The notes: generated from the sequence alone by a model not told the origin. A stretch of DNA of 64,000 bases from an uncultured Bacillota bacterium (GCA_902491575.1 CABUID010000002.1:22360-86359); one strand, 5' to 3'; numbered from the stretch's first letter, positions 3,677 through 38,419 are shown. A program made the numbers and translations.

Positions 3677-6600
3677 ATGAAAAACATGAAAAGAGCATGG
3701 GTTTCGCTGGGAATACTCTTTCTAGCAACCAGTTGTGGATCAAATCTGACAGAGCAAAGCATTGCGCCAGAAGTGCTTAATGCTAGCGTAGTAAGATTAA
3801 ATGAAAGGATTTCTGGTTCGACATTATCTTATTATAACTATATTGATAACGTTAACAATCAATATCAAGATAGGTACTTAACGGAAGATTGTGTTCAATC
3901 CATTTTCCCTGAGGGCATCAAGCCTACTGAGTATTTAACAGAAGTGGATGAAAACATGCCATCTTATGCTGTTGTTGCTTTAGGAAATACACCAGTGAAT
4001 TATGTTGCGAGTGAATTAAGTGAATCCAAATGTGGTAGATATCGTTTAGAGTTGGAATATTATGTTCCAACCACTTTTGCTTCTTCACCTAATATAACCA
4101 TTCGTATAAATCAACAACAACCTTTTACAGAAGCAGATACGATTATTTTACCTTTATTATATGAAGATAATGTTTCCTATGATGATGAAGGTAACAAAAA
4201 CTTTGATAATTATACAACAAAATATGGTGATCAAATGACTCCAACACAAAAAAGAGTTTTGAAATGGCAAAACGAAGGAATATATGAATCAAAATTTGCC
4301 ACTTCTGAGCCACTCGTATTCGACTTAAATGTTGCAAGACCAACCATATCGATTACGAATTTATCTACGGATTATTTTTATGTAGGTAAGTTGACTTTAA
4401 AACCAGTGACAGAAAGTTTATCTTATAGTCAGTATCTTTCTAATCAAGCTTTTAGTCAAGGAACAGATAATATCGAGTTGAATGCCATTGCATATTCTTA
4501 TAAAAATACAAACGATGCGACTTTAACGAACGAACAATCTCCGGCTGTAACTCCTTATTTAAATGACCGTAAATTACTCAATGTAACATCGGGTTGGGAC
4601 CAGTCAGGACAATCTATTTCGTGGGAGGTAGATGTAAAATCAGCAGGATTTTATCCAATTACGGTTCATTACTATAATGATAATGATAACTTCCCATTAT
4701 TTAGAAAAGTAGAAGTGAATGGAGAAGTACCTTTTAAGGAAATGGAAAATTATTCATTTCCTTCCACCGGCTCTCATTATGCAAATGAAACATTATCTAA
4801 TGAAAATGGAGAAGCTTATTATTTTTATTTGCATTCTGGGAAAAATACCATTACTTTAACTGCAACGATTGAGCCATTAATTGAAGTTTATACAAATTTA
4901 ATGACAGTCTATGATGATATCAATTATTTTTCCATAGAAATTCGTAAAATTACTGGAGCAACGATTGACCCATATAAGGACTATCAAATAACAAAATATT
5001 TTACAGACACAACTTCTGTTTTAAAAGCTTATAAGAATATTATTTTGGATTCTTATAATAAACTTCGAGATTTTGTTGGAAATAATAAATCCTCTAGCGT
5101 TTTATCTTATTTCCAACGTATGATTGAATTAGTCGATGAGTTATTAGAAAAACCAGATGATTTACCTCTAAAACTTTCTAAGTTTTCATCTGGTGATAAC
5201 TGCTTAGCAAAATTAGTTGCAGATACTGCCAATACTTTACAAGTTACGAATATGGTTTTAGATACCATTTATGTAACCAATGATAGTTCGAAAATTAGGC
5301 CAAGTAACGCATCTTGGTTTTCGTCATTTTATTCTTCTTTAGTCACTTTAGGTCAAACTTTTTCATCGGATAAATATAAAACAATTTTACATGATGGTGA
5401 ATTAAATGTTTGGTCTTCACGTTCTCAAGCTTATAATGATATTTTACAAACTTTCGCAGATAACGAATTTACTCCAAATACCAAATGTGCAGAATTTCCA
5501 GATGGTATTAAAGTCAATATTCGTCAAATGCCAAGTGAAGATAATTTAATTTATGCATATGCAGCGAATACTGTGCCTGATTTGGTTTTAGGCGTCAATT
5601 CAGGAAGAGCTTTTGAATTTGCTTTACGTGGGGATGCTGCTTATCCATTAAGTGATTTTGATTCATCATGGAAATATACGAATAATCATTGGGGATTTTC
5701 GCCATATTATTGGGATATTACAGGAAATATGCCACATGGACAATTAATGTCTATGCTTTATAATGATAAATTTTATTCTTTGCCTGAATCTACAAGTGCA
5801 CAATTGATGTTCTCTCGTGATGATATCATGAATGTTATGGGAGATAATGGGCAACCATTACAAGTTCCTTCAACATGGAAAGAGTTAATAGGTATGCTTT
5901 ATCGAATTCAATCATCAGGTATGAACTTTTATTATCCTACAAGTGCCTCTGGTTCTTTAAAAGGTTTATCCACAACTGCACAATTTATTTTACAAAATAA
6001 TGGAACAATTTTAACAGAAGATGGTTTTAATACGAATCTTCGTGATACAAAAACTTATGAAGGAATTAAACTATTAACGGATTTGTATACTATCTATGCT
6101 TTACCAACAGAAGTAGCTTCTTTTTATAACCATTTCCGATATGGAACTTATCCATTAGGTATAGGTGATGTTTCTATGTATTTGCAACTAAAGTATGTAG
6201 CTCCAGAATTATTAGGAAAATGGTCTGTTCATCAAATTCCAGGAATTGCTCAAGAAGCCTCCGAAGATGGAACTTATAAAGATTTAAATCATGATGGAAC
6301 ACCAGATGAGATTTCAAGATGGTATATTTCAAATGGTTCAGCGGCAATGATTTTCAATAATTCAAAATTAATTGATGAAGCTTGGTTGTTTTTACAATGG
6401 TGGATGTCAACAGAAATTCAAGAAGCATTTACTGAAGCTTTGCAATCTACCTTTGGACCATCTGTTGTTTGGTTCTCTGCTAATCTAGAAGCAGCTAAAT
6501 CTTTACCTATTGATTCAGATGTAAGAGAAACAGTTTTAGAACAAGTTAAATGGATTGTTGATTTACAACAAATTCCAGGTCAATATATGTTAGAACGTGG

Positions 6601-6877
6601 TTTATCAGATATTTGGAATACGGTCGTATTTGGAACAGCGACAACAGCAGGAACAAGTGGAAAATTAACAGTCGGTGAGGCGATTGATTTACAAAAAGTT
6701 TTAATGGATAGAGAAATCCAAAGAAAAATGGAAGAATTTGGATATTATGATACGAAAAAGAATACACCGACAAGAGAATATATTATCCGAAACTTCGATT
6801 GGGTTGAATCTTGTTTTACAAATTATCAAAATAATACAAAAGGTGGCAATAGTTCCACACCATATTGTGCTATTTAA
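3677..6877 (+). CDS. giant ABC-transporter extracellular solute-binding lipoprotein with N-terminal carbohydrate-binding-module-like region
   Basis: Strong SD (AAGGAGG) and lipobox LATSCG. The C-terminal ~500 aa resemble family-1 sugar SBPs. The N-terminal half has beta-sandwich/CBM-like strings (GRYRLELEYYVP, GFYPITVHYYND, GKNTITLTA). Sits directly upstream of a permease pair. Confidence 0.65.
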   Translation: MKNMKRAWVSLGILFLATSCGSNLTEQSIAPEVLNASVVRLNERISGSTLSYYNYIDNVNNQYQDRYLTEDCVQSIFPEGIKPTEYLTEVDENMPSYAVVALGNTPVNYVASELSESKCGRYRLELEYYVPTTFASSPNITIRINQQQPFTEADTIILPLLYEDNVSYDDEGNKNFDNYTTKYGDQMTPTQKRVLKWQNEGIYESKFATSEPLVFDLNVARPTISITNLSTDYFYVGKLTLKPVTESLSYSQYLSNQAFSQGTDNIELNAIAYSYKNTNDATLTNEQSPAVTPYLNDRKLLNVTSGWDQSGQSISWEVDVKSAGFYPITVHYYNDNDNFPLFRKVEVNGEVPFKEMENYSFPSTGSHYANETLSNENGEAYYFYLHSGKNTITLTATIEPLIEVYTNLMTVYDDINYFSIEIRKITGATIDPYKDYQITKYFTDTTSVLKAYKNIILDSYNKLRDFVGNNKSSSVLSYFQRMIELVDELLEKPDDLPLKLSKFSSGDNCLAKLVADTANTLQVTNMVLDTIYVTNDSSKIRPSNASWFSSFYSSLVTLGQTFSSDKYKTILHDGELNVWSSRSQAYNDILQTFADNEFTPNTKCAEFPDGIKVNIRQMPSEDNLIYAYAANTVPDLVLGVNSGRAFEFALRGDAAYPLSDFDSSWKYTNNHWGFSPYYWDITGNMPHGQLMSMLYNDKFYSLPESTSAQLMFSRDDIMNVMGDNGQPLQVPSTWKELIGMLYRIQSSGMNFYYPTSASGSLKGLSTTAQFILQNNGTILTEDGFNTNLRDTKTYEGIKLLTDLYTIYALPTEVASFYNHFRYGTYPLGIGDVSMYLQLKYVAPELLGKWSVHQIPGIAQEASEDGTYKDLNHDGTPDEISRWYISNGSAAMIFNNSKLIDEAWLFLQWWMSTEIQEAFTEALQSTFGPSVVWFSANLEAAKSLPIDSDVRETVLEQVKWIVDLQQIPGQYMLERGLSDIWNTVVFGTATTAGTSGKLTVGEAIDLQKVLMDREIQRKMEEFGYYDTKKNTPTREYIIRNFDWVESCFTNYQNNTKGGNSSTPYCAI

Positions 6878-6892
6878 AGGAGGGGATGAACA

Positions 6893-7855
6893 ATGAAATT
6901 GAATTTTAGAAAAAAGAACGAAAATAAACCTCCGAAAATAAAGATCAAAAAGAATTCCAGAACAAATGGAATTAATGGTTCGCCATGGTCAACGTTCTTA
7001 TTAGTTGCTCCCTATGTTACATTATTCTTCATTTTTATTGCTTTACCCGTTTTTATCTCAGCATTGTTATCTTTAACTTATTTCAATGCTATTGAATTTC
7101 CTACTTTTGTTGGATTAAAGAATTATGTAAATATGTTCTCGGTGGACCGTGATTTTATGCAATATGTTGTTCCACAAACATTAACTTTTTCCATTATTGT
7201 TGGTCCAGGAGGATATATATTATCTTTCTTAATTGCATGGATGTTGGCTCAATTACCTAAAACAATAAGAACAATTCTTGCATTAATTGTTTATGTGCCA
7301 TCTTTAGCAGGTGGTGTATTAATTGGTGTCATTTGGAAGTCAGTATTTTCTGGAGACCAATGGGGATATTTAAATGCCTTTTTAATGAATTTTGGTATTA
7401 TAAATGCCCCGATATCATGGCTTACAAGCCCAAGTTATTTATTAGGTATAACTATCTTCGTTGCCTTATGGAGTTCATTTGGTATCGGATTCTTATCTAT
7501 TTTATCTTCATTATGTAATTTAGATCCTGAACTTTATGAAGCTGCTCATATTGATGGTATTAAGAATCGTTTCCAAGAAACTATTTATGTTACTATTCCA
7601 CAAATGAGAGGTTCGATGTACTTTGCGGCTATCATGTCCATCACAAATGCTATGTCAGCAGGTACTTTAGCCATTACTTTATCTGGTTCAAATCCAACTC
7701 CACAAAAGTCTGCACAAACGATTTTAGCTCATATGAATGACTATGCATTTATACGAAATGAATTAGGTTATGCTTCAGCGATGTCGGTAGTATTATTGTT
7801 ATTTGTCTTATTATTCTCAAAAGTCGCCAATATGTTATTTGGCAATAAAGATTAG
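6893..7855 (+). CDS. carbohydrate ABC transporter permease (MalF/UgpA-like)
   Basis: Six predicted TM segments. EAA-type loop EAAHIDGIKNRFQETIYVTIPQM. Confidence 0.85.
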   Translation: MKLNFRKKNENKPPKIKIKKNSRTNGINGSPWSTFLLVAPYVTLFFIFIALPVFISALLSLTYFNAIEFPTFVGLKNYVNMFSVDRDFMQYVVPQTLTFSIIVGPGGYILSFLIAWMLAQLPKTIRTILALIVYVPSLAGGVLIGVIWKSVFSGDQWGYLNAFLMNFGIINAPISWLTSPSYLLGITIFVALWSSFGIGFLSILSSLCNLDPELYEAAHIDGIKNRFQETIYVTIPQMRGSMYFAAIMSITNAMSAGTLAITLSGSNPTPQKSAQTILAHMNDYAFIRNELGYASAMSVVLLLFVLLFSKVANMLFGNKD

Positions 7856-7866
7856 GAGGTGAAATT

Positions 7867-8733
7867 ATGGCGTTTCAGGTTATTCAATTAAATCCAAAAA
7901 AATTTCAAGCAAGTCAAATCAAATTTTTGGTTATTTTATTACCGATTTGTGCAGTCATGATTTTACCGATTATTTATACGATTTGTCAGGCTTTTAAACC
8001 TTTGGATGAATTATTTTATTTTCCACCAAGAATTTTTGTTTATCATCCTACATTATCTAATTTTTCTGAGTTATTTCGTTTGGCAAGAATTACTGGATTA
8101 CCTTGGATGAGATATTTATTAAATTCTCTTTTAATTACCATTATTTATGTAGTAGGTGTCTTATTTTTAACAGTTACAACAGGTTATGCTTTTTCTAAAA
8201 AAGAATTTAAAGTAAAGAAAATCTTTTTTACAATTAACCAATTGGCTTTAATGTTTATCGCCATCGCTGTGCAAATTCCTACTTATTTAATTGTTTCTTA
8301 TTTAGGATTAATTGATAATTTTTTAGTTCATATTATTCCTTCTTTAGCGGTTCCAGTTTATTTGTTTTTAATGAAGCAAAATATTGATGAAGTCCCTAAA
8401 GAAATATTAGAATCAGCGCGTTTAGATGGTGCGAATGATTTACAAATTATTTTAAAATTTGTTATACCTCTTGTTAAGCCAACCATAGCAACAATTTCTA
8501 TTTTGGCATTCCAATCAATTTGGAATTCAGGTGGTGCTAGTACAATTTATTTAAATTCTGAGAATTTAAAAACATTACCATACTATTTAGGATTATTATC
8601 TTCACAAGCCGGTATTCAGGCCACCGGTGTATCCGCAGCAAGTTCATTAATTCTATTTTTACCAAATTTAATTATTTTCATTGTTATGCAATCTAAAGTC
8701 ATGAATACAATGGCAAGGTCAGGTATAAAATAA
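7867..8733 (+). CDS. carbohydrate ABC transporter permease (MalG/UgpE-like)
   Basis: TM-rich. EAA loop ESARLDGANDLQIILKFVIPLVKP. Confidence 0.85.
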   Translation: MAFQVIQLNPKKFQASQIKFLVILLPICAVMILPIIYTICQAFKPLDELFYFPPRIFVYHPTLSNFSELFRLARITGLPWMRYLLNSLLITIIYVVGVLFLTVTTGYAFSKKEFKVKKIFFTINQLALMFIAIAVQIPTYLIVSYLGLIDNFLVHIIPSLAVPVYLFLMKQNIDEVPKEILESARLDGANDLQIILKFVIPLVKPTIATISILAFQSIWNSGGASTIYLNSENLKTLPYYLGLLSSQAGIQATGVSAASSLILFLPNLIIFIVMQSKVMNTMARSGIK

Positions 8734-33303: not shown

Positions 33304-33615
33304 TTGAAAAAAATATTTTCTTTTTTAATATGTTTTATTTGTTTAATAGGTTTTAATTCATGTAATATTGTAAATAAAAATAATGATAATGAACAATTAG
33401 ATAATAAGAATTCGCATGGTTATAATGGTGCTGCCCATTCTTTAATTGTGAAAGAAAATCAAGATGCAACTTGTCAAAAAGAAGGTTATCAAATCATAGG
33501 ATGTGCGAGTTGTGATTGGGTATATAGAATTTATGTGTTACCTATTGTTCCTTGTCTTTATGAAAATGGAATCTGTAAATGGTGTGGTCGAAAAAATAGT
33601 GATTATGATTTTTAA
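33304..33615 (+). CDS. small Cys-rich lipoprotein, unknown function
   Basis: Signal peptide with lipobox-like GFNSC. Several CxxC pairs (CASC, CKWC). SD GGAGGAAG upstream of a TTG start. Confidence 0.45.
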   Translation: MKKIFSFLICFICLIGFNSCNIVNKNNDNEQLDNKNSHGYNGAAHSLIVKENQDATCQKEGYQIIGCASCDWVYRIYVLPIVPCLYENGICKWCGRKNSDYDF

Positions 33616-33622
33616 AAGAATT

Positions 33623-33913
33623 TTATTGATTTATTTCATATATGCAGTGATTACTATATTTTGATTTTATATAATCATATAATCTATGATATTCTAAATA
33701 TTCTTCAAATTCTAATTTATTAAAATCTATATAAATTACATTCGAATCATAATAATTCATAATTAAATATTCGTTAAATATTTCTAACAACTTAGATTTA
33801 CCACAACGTCTTACACCTGTGATTACTTTAATGACTGGAGTTCCCATAATATCAATCAAATCATTTAAATATTTTCTTTCAATTATTTTCATTTTTTTAC
33901 CTTCTTCCAACAA
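33623..33913 (-). pseudogene. N-terminal fragment of an AAA_14/DUF4143-family ATPase gene
   Basis: Only ~96 aa, including Walker A GVRRCGKS. It ends before the expected DEIQ Walker B. Paralogous to the fragment at 62831-63049. Confidence 0.65.
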
Positions 33914-34272
33914 TATTATACTAATAGTAATTCGAAAAATTAATATTTTTTATATTTTTCGAAATGCAACATACACAATATTTCGAAATTAATAATTTAT
34001 CTAAATATAGTTTTCTTTCAACCATGTTATCTCTCACCCACGCCTTTACTGTCCTTACTTCTATGTATATCACAGATTTATTCTTTTTAAAAATTAAGTT
34101 TTGATTATAAAAACATATCTATGCCTTCTAATTTGTTAGCCTAATGTTTCTTAGAATATCTTCTATAACGGAATCAGCAAAGTTGACTTGCCAAATGAAA
34201 AAGCGTATTCACATTTAGGAATAAAACCTGTTTGTAACTACGCAATTTTATACTGGACTAAAATCCCTAACG

Positions 34273-34310
34273 GGCTTGATACTTGTATCAAACCTATATG
34301 TTCTTAATGG
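34273..34310. repeat. direct repeat copy A (distal boundary of the tRNA-Thr-associated islet)
   Basis: GGCTTGATACTTG+TATCAAACCTATATGTTCTTAATGG. It matches 38248-38260 plus 38283-38307 at 37/38 positions and lacks the 22-nt loop segment of copy B. Confidence 0.8.
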
Positions 34311-34336
34311 CAAAGATATACTACTATGATACAATT

Positions 34337-34397
34337 TGCATACCCCTAGTTTTTCTGCATACCCTTTATGAAAAAGTGCATACCCCTCTAGTTTTTA
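34337..34397. repeat. three phased TGCATACCC(C)T.. direct repeats
   Basis: Copies start at 34337, 34357 and 34378 (20-21 bp phasing). The first and third extend to ..TAGTTTTT. Confidence 0.7.
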
Positions 34398-34429
34398 CTG
34401 ACTGGTGCAATTAAATATTTCTTTAAAAA

Positions 34430-35416
34430 TTATTTTTTGTATATTCTATAATTTAGTGTATCATTATCATCAATATAACATTCAAATATATTTTCTATAC
34501 CAGCAAGTTTAGCATTATGATAAACTAAATCTTTATCTTGGAAAGCCATATTTAATCCTAAAATAATTCCATAAGGTTTCCATTCAATTGTTATGGGTTT
34601 ATTATTCCATACTGAAGAAATCATTCTCCACTCTTGGTCATACATGTGACATTTTTTCTTTATCAATGCTATTTTTTCTCTTTCCCATTTCATTTGTGGA
34701 AACATAGAAAATATTACATCATTTGCAATTGTTTCTGATAAAATTTTTTTAAGAGCCAAAGATGCAGTAAACCATTTTGCATATTCTGTTGCATCATATG
34801 GTTCATCAGAATAATAAATTGGATATAAGGATGCGGTTTGATTGCTTAATGGACATTGCATGCATTTGTTTTGTTTTCCACATAAAAACTTTGATTCATC
34901 ATATGGATCATATATAACTGCAAATCCTTTGTGCCGATCTGCATACTTAATCCATAAAGATTCATTTAATCCATTTTCAGAAAAACATACTGATAAAGTA
35001 TAACTTCTTAAAATATTTCTACTATTTTCATTCATTATTTTAAGAACAAAATGATAAACTTCATCTAAGTTGAGATTTTTTATTTTATTTAAAATCTCCA
35101 CCTCGCTCATTTTTGCTCCTATCTTGTTAAAAAAGCTTTTGAAATTTTCAATAAGATTATCTTGTTCAAAAATTTTATCAATATCATTTTTTAATTTTTC
35201 TCGGTTAATTCTTAGATAAGTATCGAAAGGATCATCATAATAATTAGATGTTGAAAAAGTTAATCTATTATTTTTTATATCTTCTAGACTTTTTAAGGTT
35301 AAACTTCTATATCTATAAATGTATCTTGGATATTTTATAACATTTTCAATGGAATCATTACCATTTTTTAAAGAGCATAATCTTTCCCAAAATACTTCCC
35401 TTTCATCAATATTCAT
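34430..35416 (-). CDS. DUF2971-like protein
   Basis: N-terminal signature YRYRSLTLKSL...RLTFSTSNYYDDPFD resembles the DUF2971 consensus. Lies 25 nt downstream of the GmrSD-like gene on the same strand. Confidence 0.5.
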   Translation of the reverse strand: MNIDEREVFWERLCSLKNGNDSIENVIKYPRYIYRYRSLTLKSLEDIKNNRLTFSTSNYYDDPFDTYLRINREKLKNDIDKIFEQDNLIENFKSFFNKIGAKMSEVEILNKIKNLNLDEVYHFVLKIMNENSRNILRSYTLSVCFSENGLNESLWIKYADRHKGFAVIYDPYDESKFLCGKQNKCMQCPLSNQTASLYPIYYSDEPYDATEYAKWFTASLALKKILSETIANDVIFSMFPQMKWEREKIALIKKKCHMYDQEWRMISSVWNNKPITIEWKPYGIILGLNMAFQDKDLVYHNAKLAGIENIFECYIDDNDTLNYRIYKK

Positions 35417-35441
35417 TGCTATGCACCTACCCGTTTTTTGA

Positions 35442-37829
35442 TTATTTGTGTCGATTGAACCAGTTTAACAAATCATCTCTACTTTCTTCGAACCATTGGC
35501 TAGTTATAAAATAATTTTTGCCATTTATAACCACTGGATCTTTATAATATCTTACTTGAATACTATTTCCTCTATTTGCATTTTTGGATTCGGCCAATAT
35601 TGGATAAACGACCTTCTTGAAGTTAGCTCTTGTATATTCTTTAGTCATAAGGTCAGCTATTTCTTGAAATGACAGTCTATCATTTTCTAAAAGCCATTTA
35701 ATTAATTCATATGCTAAATAGCCAATTTTAACATCTTGAAAAGAAGCTTCATCAAGAATATTGAATGCAGACTTTTCTTTTTTTATTTTCACCAAAAACC
35801 TTAAATCTTGGGGATCTAAATCAAAGTGTTTTAGATATTTTCTTATTTCGTTGACTTTTGATTGAGAACTTAGATTTGTTTCTATAAATAAAGAATTAGA
35901 AAGTTTATAAGGTTTTCTCATATCGTGTTCATTAGAAGAGATATATTTAGATTCTATATTCAAGTAATTTTCCGGATCTAGCATATAAAGTTGTACATTA
36001 ATCTTATTATATGCATCTGATATATTATTAGTTGAAATTTCATCTCCTAAAAATACCATTTTAACAATTGTTTTACCAGTATAATCATATTCGTCATCTA
36101 AATCAATCCATTGTTCGTTTTCTTTATGACTAAAATTTGTAATCGGCATAGTCCAAATATTTTTAGCAACGGAAAATAATAACTCTGCCCTTTCAACAAT
36201 TGTATTTTCATTCCAAATAGTTGCGTTTTTAATATAATCATTTAAAAACAGTTTAGAATATATAAATCCGTTTTCTGGTTTTTCTTTCTTCCTTTCAAAA
36301 CTTAAATTACTGTAATCACTATTGTATGCTGTTAATGTTAAATTCCCTATTGTATGAAGATATTTTGCATAAATCAATTCCCATGTATCACCAAGATATG
36401 TTTTCCATTCTTGCGTTAAGGTTTGTGGCATCACATGCTCTATAGTCAATGTACCACTATTTATTTGTTCTTCAACTGCGATTCTTTCTTTTGAATTGCT
36501 ATTTTCTAACCGCTCTAAGATATATTTTTTAAACGCTGGCTTAGCATTGTAAAGTTCGAACGAATGAAAACAATTATTAAACTCATGGTCATTTGGAAAT
36601 CTAGATTTTCCAGTTCTTGCTAATATAGAAAATTTAAAAGCGTCTAAATATGTTGCATTATCTTCAGTAATATACTTTTCTACCTCTGCTCCAATAGAAA
36701 CAAAAGTTCTATTTAATGATGAAATTGGTAAGCCACAAATTATTCTTCTAACATAATAAGACTCAATAAGTTTAGACGCTTCACAAATCTCTTTGTCTTC
36801 TAATAAATTATTTTTATAAGCAAATAGCAAATCAAATAATAAAGGGATTGCTGTATTAACTTCTAAATGCATTAATCTCCCAAAAGCACCTTTATATCCA
36901 TTATCATATGGGTTGCATTTTATTATTTCATTATAGAATTGTGCATATATAATTATATCTTTTAAAATATTCTCAATATCAATATTATTACTTATCTTAT
37001 ATTTTTTGAATTCAAAATATAATTTATCTTCTTTAGGCAATTCTCTTGTTTTTATTGCTAAATAGTACCGAATGAACTTTGACATATCTTGCTTTCCAAC
37101 AAACAATTCGATTTTTTCCCAATATTTTCTATAAAGATTCTCTTGACGTTTTGAATCTAACCCCATTAAAATATAGTTTCTAATTTTATCCGATTCTTGC
37201 AAATCTAATCCAGTTGAATTAAGACTTTCAAAAATCAATTGTGGATCATCTCCATTTTGTGGCTTTAAACTAATAGCAACTATAATTAATTTAGTTATTG
37301 CTTCATATAATTTAGAAATTTCTGTCAGTTCCATTTTTTTAAGTTGGTCATAAAAAAACATATAGTTAATGGTAATACTATTATTTTCTATTGGAGTATC
37401 ATTTTCAATTAGTCTATTGTAAGCTTCATCATCGCCTTGAACTAATTTAAGCTTTAATTTTTTTTCGTCGTTAGCATATTCGTCTATCAAATAAGCTTTC
37501 ATGATTTTTGAAATATTAATTCCATTAGCAATAATACGATTATTGTCTAAATAGTTTCTAATGGCTAATAAAAGAATTGATACAGTCGTAATTCTTTGTT
37601 GTCCATCAACAATTATATATTCATTACATCCTCCTACATCCTCTTCGACATAGACAATGCTTCCAAAAAAATGAGAATCATAATTATTTTGATATATTGC
37701 CTTTAAATCTTTTAATAGTTGCTCACAGTTTTGCCTTTTCCAACTATAGGTCCTTTGATAGACTGGAATAATAAATTTTTTATCCCCACCATCTAAAAAT
37801 CTTATGATACTATACGCTCTTGCATCCAT
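35442..37829 (-). CDS. GmrSD-family (DUF262 + DUF1524 His-Me finger) putative type IV, modification-dependent restriction enzyme with extra C-terminal region
   Basis: DUF262 motifs IPVYQRTYSW and DGQQRITT. DUF1524 motifs TIEHVMPQT and HTIGNLTL. An additional ~200 aa follow. Confidence 0.75.
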   Translation of the reverse strand: MDARAYSIIRFLDGGDKKFIIPVYQRTYSWKRQNCEQLLKDLKAIYQNNYDSHFFGSIVYVEEDVGGCNEYIIVDGQQRITTVSILLLAIRNYLDNNRIIANGINISKIMKAYLIDEYANDEKKLKLKLVQGDDEAYNRLIENDTPIENNSITINYMFFYDQLKKMELTEISKLYEAITKLIIVAISLKPQNGDDPQLIFESLNSTGLDLQESDKIRNYILMGLDSKRQENLYRKYWEKIELFVGKQDMSKFIRYYLAIKTRELPKEDKLYFEFKKYKISNNIDIENILKDIIIYAQFYNEIIKCNPYDNGYKGAFGRLMHLEVNTAIPLLFDLLFAYKNNLLEDKEICEASKLIESYYVRRIICGLPISSLNRTFVSIGAEVEKYITEDNATYLDAFKFSILARTGKSRFPNDHEFNNCFHSFELYNAKPAFKKYILERLENSNSKERIAVEEQINSGTLTIEHVMPQTLTQEWKTYLGDTWELIYAKYLHTIGNLTLTAYNSDYSNLSFERKKEKPENGFIYSKLFLNDYIKNATIWNENTIVERAELLFSVAKNIWTMPITNFSHKENEQWIDLDDEYDYTGKTIVKMVFLGDEISTNNISDAYNKINVQLYMLDPENYLNIESKYISSNEHDMRKPYKLSNSLFIETNLSSQSKVNEIRKYLKHFDLDPQDLRFLVKIKKEKSAFNILDEASFQDVKIGYLAYELIKWLLENDRLSFQEIADLMTKEYTRANFKKVVYPILAESKNANRGNSIQVRYYKDPVVINGKNYFITSQWFEESRDDLLNWFNRHK

Positions 37830-37931
37830 TTTACTTACCTCTCAAAAAATGCACTTTATATATTTCGTCTTTTAAAATGAATATATCTTCATTTCTTGGC
37901 ATATTATGAAACTACTTTTATGACTTTTTAT

Positions 37932-37940
37932 ATTGTATCA
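37932..37940 (-). promoter_or_regulatory. extended -10 (TGATACAAT) for the GmrSD-like operon
   Basis: Minus-strand TGnTAcAAT about 100 nt upstream of the start at 37829. Confidence 0.35.
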
Positions 37941-38240
37941 TATTTTAATCATTTGCACTATTCTTTTGCAAAATTAAATAATAAAAAGTATGACTAATAA
38001 AAATCATTTACTCAATATTGATAAGCAATGATCAAAATTATAAAGATAAAATATACAGATTTAAATTTCAAAACACCTTTCGTCTGATAGTATAGGCTTT
38101 CGCTTGACTGTTGATTTAAAGTGAAGAATACTTATCTTAAAATGGTGTTAAAAAAGCTCTTGTTGTGGCAAAGTGCTTCTCAGTTTGAACTCAAAACATC
38201 AAGTGATGCTAAAATGGTTCAAAATCACTAAAGTTGCAAA

Positions 38241-38291
38241 GAAAAAAGGCTTGATACTTGAAAATCTGCTCAATTTTCTTTGTATCAAACC
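38241..38291 (-). terminator. intrinsic terminator of tRNA-Thr
   Basis: Minus strand: GGTTTGATAC, 24-nt loop, GTATCAAGCC, then TTTTTTTC. Confidence 0.65.
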
Positions 38292-38307
38292 TATATGTTT
38301 TTAATGG
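38248..38307. repeat. direct repeat copy B (tRNA-proximal)
   Basis: Same sequence as copy A but with a 22-nt insert at 38261-38282. Ends on the TGG complementary to the tRNA CCA. Confidence 0.8.
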
Positions 38308-38378
38308 TGCCTCCTACTAGAGTCGAACTAGTCACGAATCCTTACCATGGATTTATTATACCGATTAACTAAGGAGGC
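38305..38378 (-). tRNA. tRNA-Thr (anticodon GGT), CCA encoded
   Basis: Hand-folded cloverleaf: acceptor GCCTCCT/AGGAGGC, D-arm GTTA/TAAT, anticodon arm AATCC-ATGGTAA-GGATT, T-arm ACTAG-TTCGACT-CTAGT, discriminator A plus CCA. 74 nt. Confidence 0.85.
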
Positions 38379-38390
38379 AAGTGCGAATAC

Positions 38391-38419
38391 ATAATACTAA
38401 TTAATTTTAAAGTTGTCAA
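38391..38419 (-). promoter_or_regulatory. sigma-70-type promoter for tRNA-Thr
   Basis: Minus strand: TTGACA, 17 nt, TATTAT, about 12 nt before the tRNA 5' end. Confidence 0.6.

Follow-up and report, generated by a model that had tools for sequence, protein, structure and literature searches.

Integrating elements classically recognize one tRNA and carry their own integrase. The cis-mobilizable elements (CIMEs) of streptococci are bounded by true attL/attR direct repeats that come from a known integrative and conjugative element (ICE), mobile insertion cassettes (MICs) enter numerous sites and produce the same target duplication as their parent insertion sequence (IS), and repetitive extragenic palindromic sequences (REPs) are short elements, present in hundreds of copies, with neither cargo nor a fixed partner end. 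Tycheposons of Prochlorococcus have, by definition, an inward-facing site-specific integrase, with one lineage per tRNA and partial-tRNA repeats of ~40 nt (Hackl et al., bioRxiv 10.1101/2020.12.28.424599). The present analysis concerns a 4.0-kb segment at ~34308-38304 beside the gene for tRNA-Thr(GGT), within a 64,000-nt window (GCA_902491575.1 CABUID010000002.1:22360-86359) of the 2-Mb genome of an uncultured Bacillota bacterium, referred to as G000; coordinates without a prefix are positions in this window. The segment is probably a unit in a family of modular, non-autonomous cassettes that occur in uncultured low-GC gut Bacilli, carry cargo genes, are docked at the CCA of tRNA or transfer-messenger RNA (tmRNA) genes, and are mobilized in trans. 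In contrast to the classical elements, one pair of ends is found at no fewer than 15 tRNAs and a tmRNA.

Like tycheposons, these cassettes are tRNA- or tmRNA-linked cargo in streamlined genomes, carry defence or adaptive genes, differ between strains, and form tandem arrays in which newcomers appear to push decaying older units outward. Unlike tycheposons, they lack an integrase and hallmark replication genes, have the same ends at all of these tRNAs, and share CCA or CA alone at their junctions. They also differ from a classical tRNA-associated genomic island, as they have neither an integrase nor a direct repeat at both ends (loci L039 and L049, see below). Recombinase-less islets that lie beside a tRNA gene or another gene 3' end, are thought to be moved in trans, and accrete in tandem recall CIMEs and the accretion of ICEs and integrative and mobilizable elements, but single units of the present family have no distal repeat, and we know of no parent ICE.

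A preliminary description of the window had noted a direct repeat at 34273-34310 and 38248-38307, the second copy of which overlaps the 3' end of the tRNA-Thr(GGT) gene and forms its terminator, and this description of the sequence held up. The blocks GGCTTGATACTTG and TATCAAACCTATATGTTCTTAATGG adjoin each other in the distal copy and are separated by 22 nt in the proximal one; the 28-mers at 34283-34310 and 38280-38307 are identical at 27 of 28 positions, a 13-nt arm is shared in addition, and a 25-mer pattern with up to three mismatches matches twice in the window and never in 100 shuffles. The tRNA gene, the docking site, occupies 38305-38378 on the minus strand (ARAGORN; 52.3 bits with the Rfam tRNA model), and its CCA, seen as TGG at 38305-38307, ends the repeat and is the exact cassette boundary. 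In the orientation of the tRNA gene, the sequence of the proximal copy is CCA-TTAAAAACATATA-GGTTTGATAC...GTATCAAGCC-TTTTTT, i.e. a strong hairpin followed by a T-run (-18.6 kcal/mol, RNAfold). This hairpin and T-run (38242-38291, minus strand; arms GGTTTGATAC and GTATCAAGCC with the inner stem GAAAAT/ATTTTC) form a predicted, functional-looking intrinsic terminator that would end the tRNA-Thr transcript; the candidate promoter of the tRNA itself is TTGACA-17-TATTAT at 38419-38391 on the same strand (consensus scan). It should be noted that a simple promoter and terminator scan is uninformative in AT-rich DNA and misses this long-loop hairpin. The distal copy, as had also been described, has both hairpin arms but lacks the 22-nt loop and the T-run; its own loop is 2 nt long.

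The repeat is the first 26-28 nt of a conserved element end of ~240-280 nt (BLAST), copies of which are clustered in G000. Read on the tRNA strand, this left end (LE) opens with an invariant core, TTAAAAACATATAGGTTTGATACAAA (38279-38304, minus strand), which is identical or has at most two mismatches in eight copies in G000 and at 15 loci of other species. Like the core, all further cassette features lie on the minus strand. The inner left arm (38070-38241) contains conserved blocks and two CGAAAG-type repeats (38076-38084 and 38095-38105), which are ~20 nt apart and ~200-230 nt from the CCA, and in BLAST it is 74-82% identical over 235-280 nt to four to five other copies and to L039, L049, L035, and L042. 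Just downstream of these repeats is TTTAAA-17-TATAAT (38037-38065; 10/12 in the consensus scan), a weak candidate for the cargo promoter in this AT-rich DNA. At the other boundary, the right end (RE; 34308-34400) was recognized by the RE consensus described below: three phased TGCATACCC(C) repeats at 34337-34346, 34356-34364, and 34377-34386 precede a terminal block, TTGTATCATAGTAGTATATCTTTGCCA, that ends at 34308 on the tRNA strand.

Two cargo genes lie between these ends. The first (35442-37829) encodes a protein of 795 aa in which both GmrSD_N (DUF262; 3.3e-34) and GmrSD_C (DUF1524; 1.5e-26) exceed the Pfam cut-offs, so that a type IV restriction enzyme of the GmrSD family is predicted; it has ~240 extra C-terminal residues and was assigned to Orf5, HEC-06, and mREase_IV in PADLOC. 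The second (34430-35416) encodes a protein of 328 aa that matches PDC-S31 in PADLOC (2.7e-21), and a gene 75% identical to it is found in another tRNA-linked islet, in genome G010. The preliminary description had named a GmrSD-like and a DUF2971-like gene: both open reading frames (ORFs) are real and the GmrSD domains were found, but the DUF2971 match is below threshold (E 0.028; 16.2 bits versus a cut-off of 22), and PDC-S31 takes its place. It was right that the islet lacks a recombinase, as neither PF00589 nor PF00239 matches anywhere in 33600-38400. The GC content of the islet, 0.25-0.29, is slightly lower than that of its flanks, 0.27-0.33. A small RNA or peptide in the left arm was considered and rejected, as the short ORFs are not conserved in frame across aligned copies, and Rfam searches of the islet and eight array loci returned tRNAs and one unrelated Staphylococcus-1 RNA and nothing in the LE, left arm, or RE.

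The distal copy of the repeat (34273-34307) is the LE core of an older neighbouring unit, fused to a short-loop hairpin of another subtype (copy alignment); the sequence that follows it, CGTTAGGGAT...GCGTAGTTACAAACAGG, recurs in the congeners G003 and G005. What is left of this older unit (33623-34272) consists of an arm without coding sequence and a truncated gene for an AAA_14 ATPase (33623-33913, Pfam fragment match), intact versions of which, with AAA_14 and DUF4143, are the cargo of a sister unit at tRNA-Gln (contig C1) and of strain L110. Since complete single units have no second copy at their far end, the distal copy can be read as the left end of the next, decayed unit. As judged from the sequence comparisons, the array at tRNA-Thr is thus the tRNA, the GmrSD unit, and a decayed AAA_14 unit in this order, and the 'direct repeat' is two left ends. 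In three arrays, the oldest cargo or that nearest to the tRNA is an AAA_14+DUF4143 gene, either intact or truncated (33623-33913 of the window, G000:C1:21663-22934, G000:C8:35182-35817, and L110 11707-12921), and the G000 copy at tRNA-Ile has an internal deletion of 429 nt relative to a conspecific strain. Contigs of the same species from other samples in Logan/ENA (L099, L104, L120, and L108) end at 38277 and 34268-38296, that is, at the 28-nt LE copies; breaks also occur at ~33332, inside a 103-aa ORF.

Comparison of the copies outlines a common anatomy. Each LE starts with CCA followed directly by TTAARAACATATAGGTTTGATAC and continues with the terminator hairpin and an arm of ~200 nt with phased CGAAAG repeats. 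The 5' arm of the hairpin is invariant and at least six different loops and 3' arms are found, with pairing and T-run always kept. Two to five CGAAAG-type repeats are present per LE, spaced by 20-21 nt from about +200 to +285 (+200/+220/+240/+260/+285). In the RE, the repeat GGGTATGCA (GGGTGCG instead in one subfamily) is present one to four times at intervals of 21-23 nt, and the last bases are TTGTATCA-N16-CCA. This consensus was recovered in the G000 copies on C8, C1, C4, and C18 and in L039, L041, L049, L044, L083, and L095, with the RE 1-7 kb from its LE and always ending in CA. Where an LE is not adjacent to a tRNA, an RE lies directly before it, again ending in CA. The joint of RE and LE is a 53-bp dyad centred on CCA, TTGTATCA-N16-CCA-N16-TGATACAA, with perfect 9-bp outer boxes and 16-nt inner parts (sequence across the joint, TATCTTTGCCATTAARAACATATAGG), and CA is the sole sequence common to the tRNA-LE, RE-LE, and RE-flank junctions. 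While these A-type ends form imperfect 25-bp inverted repeats, a second, B type has 27-bp inverted repeats (22-24/27) that begin with TGT or TAT and finish with ACA, with CA directly on both sides; B-type ends follow five tRNAs in G000, and one B unit lies between tRNA-Ser and an A-type LE.

Because CA alone is common to the junctions, the inverted repeats are imperfect and 25-27 bp long, and the dyad is centred on CCA, the junction features are most like a serine-recombinase attP with a CA crossover, which suggests a trans-acting serine recombinase or a transposase. The form of a large serine integrase attP is found in the dyad of ~53 bp and in the 2-3 nt that joint and target have in common; different from such an attP are the extra phased repeats in both arms and the lack of any cognate integrase among the genes found. 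To our knowledge, each of the large serine integrases described so far acts at a single site and not at many tRNAs.

Among the 3' trailers of all 40 tRNA genes of G000, at least three conserved families can be distinguished. Trailer A is the LE; trailer B, TGTAAAGCATACGAAAAGGCTATTTAGCCTT..., has two hairpins and follows five tRNAs; and trailer C, ...ATACCCCCATTTATTGGAC..., follows three. Example positions are C1:264671, C6:82615, C8:59741, C8:67678, and C17:10970, as well as C8:55162, C21:1776, and C3:90947. The first ~12 nt after the CCA, TWTARAARCATA, are alike in trailers A and B and in a subtype from the congener G004.

The preliminary description had proposed a search for the repeat at other tRNA-Thr loci, and the result reaches far beyond tRNA-Thr. 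A 26-mer of the repeat has nine copies in G000 (none for the reversed control), the number of LE copies in this genome is put at ~8-12, and the LE adjoins the CCA of three tRNAs there, Gln-CTG, Thr-GGT, and Ile-GAT. A scan with an exact 23-mer of one genome per prokaryotic species yielded 15 further loci in ~11 other species, all of them in metagenome-assembled genomes (MAGs) of uncultured Bacilli/'Mollicutes'/Anaeroplasmataceae, and in 12/15 the LE starts exactly after a tRNA or tmRNA CCA. Together with an order-wide scan, the targets in other genomes are Thr-CGT, Ser-GGA, Ser-GCT, Gly-CCC, Gly-TCC, Leu-CAG, Leu-GAG, Leu-CAA, Ala-CGC, His, Tyr, Gln-TTG, Glu-CTC, and tmRNA, and the total comes to at least 15 tRNA species and a tmRNA with an LE after the CCA. 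At the tRNA-Thr(GGT) of the congener G004, a tandem array with a sister subtype of the LE is present. With up to two mismatches, the LE is present in 12/401 genomes of the order, representing four families, and in none of five congeners (0/5), and its 26 nt are nearly identical across families whose genes are ~70% identical. Every strong copy lies after a tRNA or tmRNA CCA or after an RE, whereas a REP-like element would be expected at many unrelated sites without a fixed neighbour; the repeat is thus dispersed, which the preliminary description had taken as a possible sign of a REP-like terminator element, but its dispersal is not random. Between L039 and G000, identity is 87.8% for the ArsR+DUF5714 cargo, which lies at different tRNAs in the two, and ~70% for core genes; this similarity and the patchy presence of the LE point to a horizontal spread of the cassettes.

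Two complete single units show how a cassette is bounded. In L039 (UMGS268), the CCA of tRNA-Leu(CAG) is followed directly by an LE, the ArsR and DUF5714 genes, and an RE ending in TCTTTGCCA, after which unrelated DNA begins. In L049 (MGBC107741), the CCA of tRNA-Gln(TTG) is followed by an LE, a GNAT gene, and an RE that also ends in TCTTTGCCA, and then by 296 nt and mnmE. Neither has a second LE, and the two junctions of each share CCA alone, which argues that the repeat is not an attL/attR pair. At the syntenic tRNA-Gln/mnmE site, G406 has ~75 nt between CCA and mnmE and can be regarded as empty, G401 has an LE-to-RE unit of 1.14 kb, and G408 has 390 nt with an LE-like trailer. In G410 (L087, G410:C9), an islet of 860 nt lies at this position between two perfectly matching, directly repeated 20-nt copies of the tRNA-Gln 3' end, GAATCTTGTTAGTCCTGCCA; it holds one small membrane-peptide ORF and is a classical att-type remnant at the site of the G401 unit.

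At tRNA-Thr itself, conspecific strains with identical NrdG have two alleles, and four contigs match that of the window. Four other contigs, with 99.2% identity across nrdG and the tRNA, have TATAAAGCATACGAAAAGGCTATTTAGCC... directly after this CCA, i.e. a B-type end, and other cargo, and the point at which the two alleles switch is the CCA of tRNA-Thr. In species-level relatives, nrdDG, tRNA-Thr, and pmbA are unlinked, and no empty site is available for comparison. From the preliminary view of the locus as a trans-mobilized defence islet beside a tRNA, the recombinase-less insert therefore stands, and a different cassette occupies the same tRNA in conspecific strains, but the att pair does not stand.

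From these comparisons, a scheme for the cassettes can be proposed. A unit would enter directly after the tRNA CCA and push older units outward, giving tandem arrays. Each unit would supply an LE that restores the tRNA terminator (13 nt, the GGTTTGATAC hairpin, and the T-run) together with an arm of ~200 nt in which repeats are phased at 20 nt and the cargo promoter is probably located; one or more genes as cargo, most of them from restriction or anti-phage systems; and an RE with phased GGGTATGCA repeats that finishes with TTGTATCA-N16-CCA. A recombinase or transposase acting in trans would recognize the imperfect inverted repeats of 25-27 bp at both ends, with the 53-bp dyad as the joint, and strand exchange would take place at CA. 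Excision at CA would join ...GGAGGCACCA to the sequence after 34308 and ...ATCTTTGCCA to TTAAAAACATATAGG. That the target is recognized through the T-arm and CCA common to all tRNA genes is speculative. We put forward only tentatively, and with some doubt, the wider proposal that a trans-acting system reads T-arm plus CCA and exchanges at CA, so that any tRNA operon end could be a port for interchangeable defence cassettes, an integron-like economy without an integron. Insertion would then be harmless because each cassette brings its own tRNA terminator.

The likeness to integron cassettes and to clusters of attC sites lacking integron-integrases (CALINs) lies in small, recombinase-less tandem cassettes, a structured and partly palindromic site, frequent defence or toxin-antitoxin cargo, and proximal entry. 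However, there is no IntI beside the array, the arrays start at tRNA genes (at CCA and not at attI) with no tyrosine recombinase within 10 kb, and each unit has a terminator, and probably a promoter, of its own. Unlike attC, the junction ...TTTGCCA/TTAARAACATA has no GTTRRRY, and the pairing of the ends is partial (an 8-bp outer and a 4-bp inner stem). A literature check, which was limited, turned up no account of a family in which one and the same end sequence is docked at the CCA of numerous tRNAs.

The mobilizing enzyme was sought with PF00589, PF00239, PF01548, PF01797, and PF00665 genome-wide and by phmmer comparison of all G000 recombinases with the ORFs of 29 LE-bearing loci. The eight tyrosine and nine serine recombinase matches of G000 all lie outside the islet and are unlinked to the arrays. 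Three large serine recombinases (C6, C41, and C42), five small serine recombinases, and three Xer-like proteins are encoded in G000; none of the three large ones is linked to the arrays, and the ends of the small contigs C41 and C42, each with one of these genes, share nothing with LE or RE. None of the LE-to-RE units examined contains a recombinase or transposase, and an integrase or replication gene was not found in the ~20 units examined for it. Searches of phage, plasmid, and IMG/VR sequences with LE, RE, and the B-type end gave no true match; three IMG/VR matches were rejected as chance matches inside coding DNA of 38-39% GC. Since MAGs often lack plasmids and phages, the helper enzyme may be unbinned.

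Several candidates were set aside. The first phmmer match is a TndX-like serine recombinase in L041 (CAAEFC010000043.1, sense 5519-8000; Resolvase, Recombinase, zinc ribbon, and DUF4368 domains), which lies in a GC-rich foreign insert and has no orthologue in G000; this foreign segment is ~2 kb beyond the second LE, in an otherwise AT-rich tRNA-Ala array. The second, in L076, is an hsdS shufflon invertase; neither of the two accounts for the family. As to an IS200/IS605 or IS110 helper, G000 has no PF01797 match, and PF01548 is represented by a single fragment of 93 aa on a contig of 2 kb. Xer/dif-dependent mobility, as in integrative mobile elements exploiting Xer and plasmid dif modules, was rejected as well: the RE-LE joint matches dif consensuses at 13-16 of 28-31 positions, which is chance level, and no dif-like 28-bp site of the 11-6-11 form lies at the unit borders. 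A plausible chromosomal dif is ACTTCGCATAATGTTGATTATGTCAAAT at G000:C5:84833-84860, 6 kb from a XerC/D-like gene (C5:77692-78609).

The preliminary description had likened the repeat to attL/attR left by site-specific integration; in the classical form of this explanation, a 38-bp attB just downstream of tRNA-Thr was duplicated when a tyrosine integrase, later lost, inserted a single island. Two direct copies bracketing two genes, phased repeats beside the distal copy that resemble arm-type sites, and the existence of classical islets in the group, such as the one in G410, would agree with this. Nevertheless, the units at tRNA-Leu and tRNA-Gln have no distal copy and share CCA alone, the repeat follows many tRNAs and also the right ends of other units, and in the window a diverged arm and a decayed cargo gene belonging to the distal copy come after it; this explanation is largely refuted and very improbable. 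Alternatively, the LE might be a REP-like terminator repeat without any role in transposition that is spread by gene conversion, with islets swapped by homologous recombination via core genes and repeats. Its functional-looking intrinsic terminator, the three conserved trailer families, and the missing recombinase would fit, and it resembles REPs and bacterial interspersed mosaic elements as a dispersed, hairpin-forming intergenic repeat and possible terminator. However, unlike these elements, the LE is present in ~10 copies, extends over ~250 nt, has its fixed place at CCA, and is paired with an RE. Gene conversion leaves unexplained the fixed partner RE at a distance of 1-7 kb, the single units between tRNA and native trailer, the near-identity of 26 nt across families together with its presence in so few genomes, and the inverted-repeat symmetry of the two ends. 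We regard this possibility as unlikely.

Some observations nevertheless weigh against the interpretation as mobilized cassettes, and part of them lend weight to the terminator repeat. In G000, one or other of the three trailer families is found where about half of the tRNA transcription units end, and part of the conservation could therefore reflect tRNA 3'-end biology. Between conspecific strains, the tRNA-Ile array differs by complex replacements whose boundaries do not coincide with LE or RE, rather than by clean gain or loss of units, so that homologous recombination clearly contributes to array turnover. The left-arm and right-arm repeats differ in sequence, which is unusual for a single recombinase. 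The comparison of the occupied and empty tRNA-Gln/mnmE sites of G401 and G406 is one between species at ~70% identity, while no empty site was found in a same-species strain, where the alternative tRNA-Thr allele is another cassette type. Last, no mobilizing enzyme was found near the G000 arrays or in the ~25 loci examined. If mobility is accepted, the main alternative to a serine recombinase is a transposase making a 2-3-bp duplication (CA/CCA): the units would then be mobile insertion cassettes akin to miniature inverted-repeat transposable elements, with passenger genes, a DDE-type or other transposase, and a target selector that, as in Tn7-like elements, directs it to tRNA ends. The inverted-repeat ends (27 bp in the B type, imperfect 25 bp in the A type), CA on both sides, the subterminal phased repeats, and the general likeness to MICs such as MIC231 of Bacillus cereus, which have inverted-repeat ends and passenger genes and whose transposase is presumed to act in trans, agree with this. 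But there is no 5-bp duplication and no TnsB-type repeat common to both ends, the rve-family genes of G000 belong to IS copies away from the arrays, a Y1 transposase is missing and IS110 is represented by a broken fragment only, and, unlike in MICs, the site is always a tRNA CCA end or the end of a sister unit; we know of no parent IS. This version seems quite unlikely to us, a little more so than the terminator repeat.

The cargo of the cassettes, in G000 as well as in the other genomes, is mostly defence or restriction. It includes GmrSD, type I restriction-modification (RM) systems at five loci (one with an hsdS shufflon), a C5 methylase with MTaX1, AbiEi/AbiEii, and Abi_2; HNH and GIY-YIG nucleases, Fic, and a Pol-beta nucleotidyltransferase; and GNATs, AAA_14/DUF4143, ArsR, MarR, and redox genes. 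The Fic gene at G000:C4:5127-6353 (L013) has a diverged LE copy immediately downstream (C4:6292-6353) and an RE copy at C4:10471-10509, so that direct repeats and hairpins near this gene may represent cassette ends and not operator sites of Fic. The type I RM locus of L076 (13888-19633; G010:C1), inside an LE/RE array, has four hsdS genes of alternating orientation with a 307-aa tyrosine recombinase beside them, a phase-variable shufflon, and is interrupted by an IS21 copy (rve and IstB). The Staphylococcus-1 RNA (RF03112, 132 bits) at G000:C1:15378-15501 (L009 7378-7501, minus strand) is directly upstream of a 318-aa HNH_4 gene, and this pair lies just downstream of tRNA-Leu(CAG), within the tRNA-Gln array.

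The consensus of LE and RE is a concrete signature by which annotators can delimit such islets, and the cassettes account for the breaks that many assemblies of these organisms show directly after tRNA genes. Provided that the ends serve as recombination sites, they would represent a generic way of docking at tRNA ends by which defence genes are shuffled between little-known, uncultured bacteria of the gut that have small genomes, and a compact, portable design in which a terminator travels together with its cargo.

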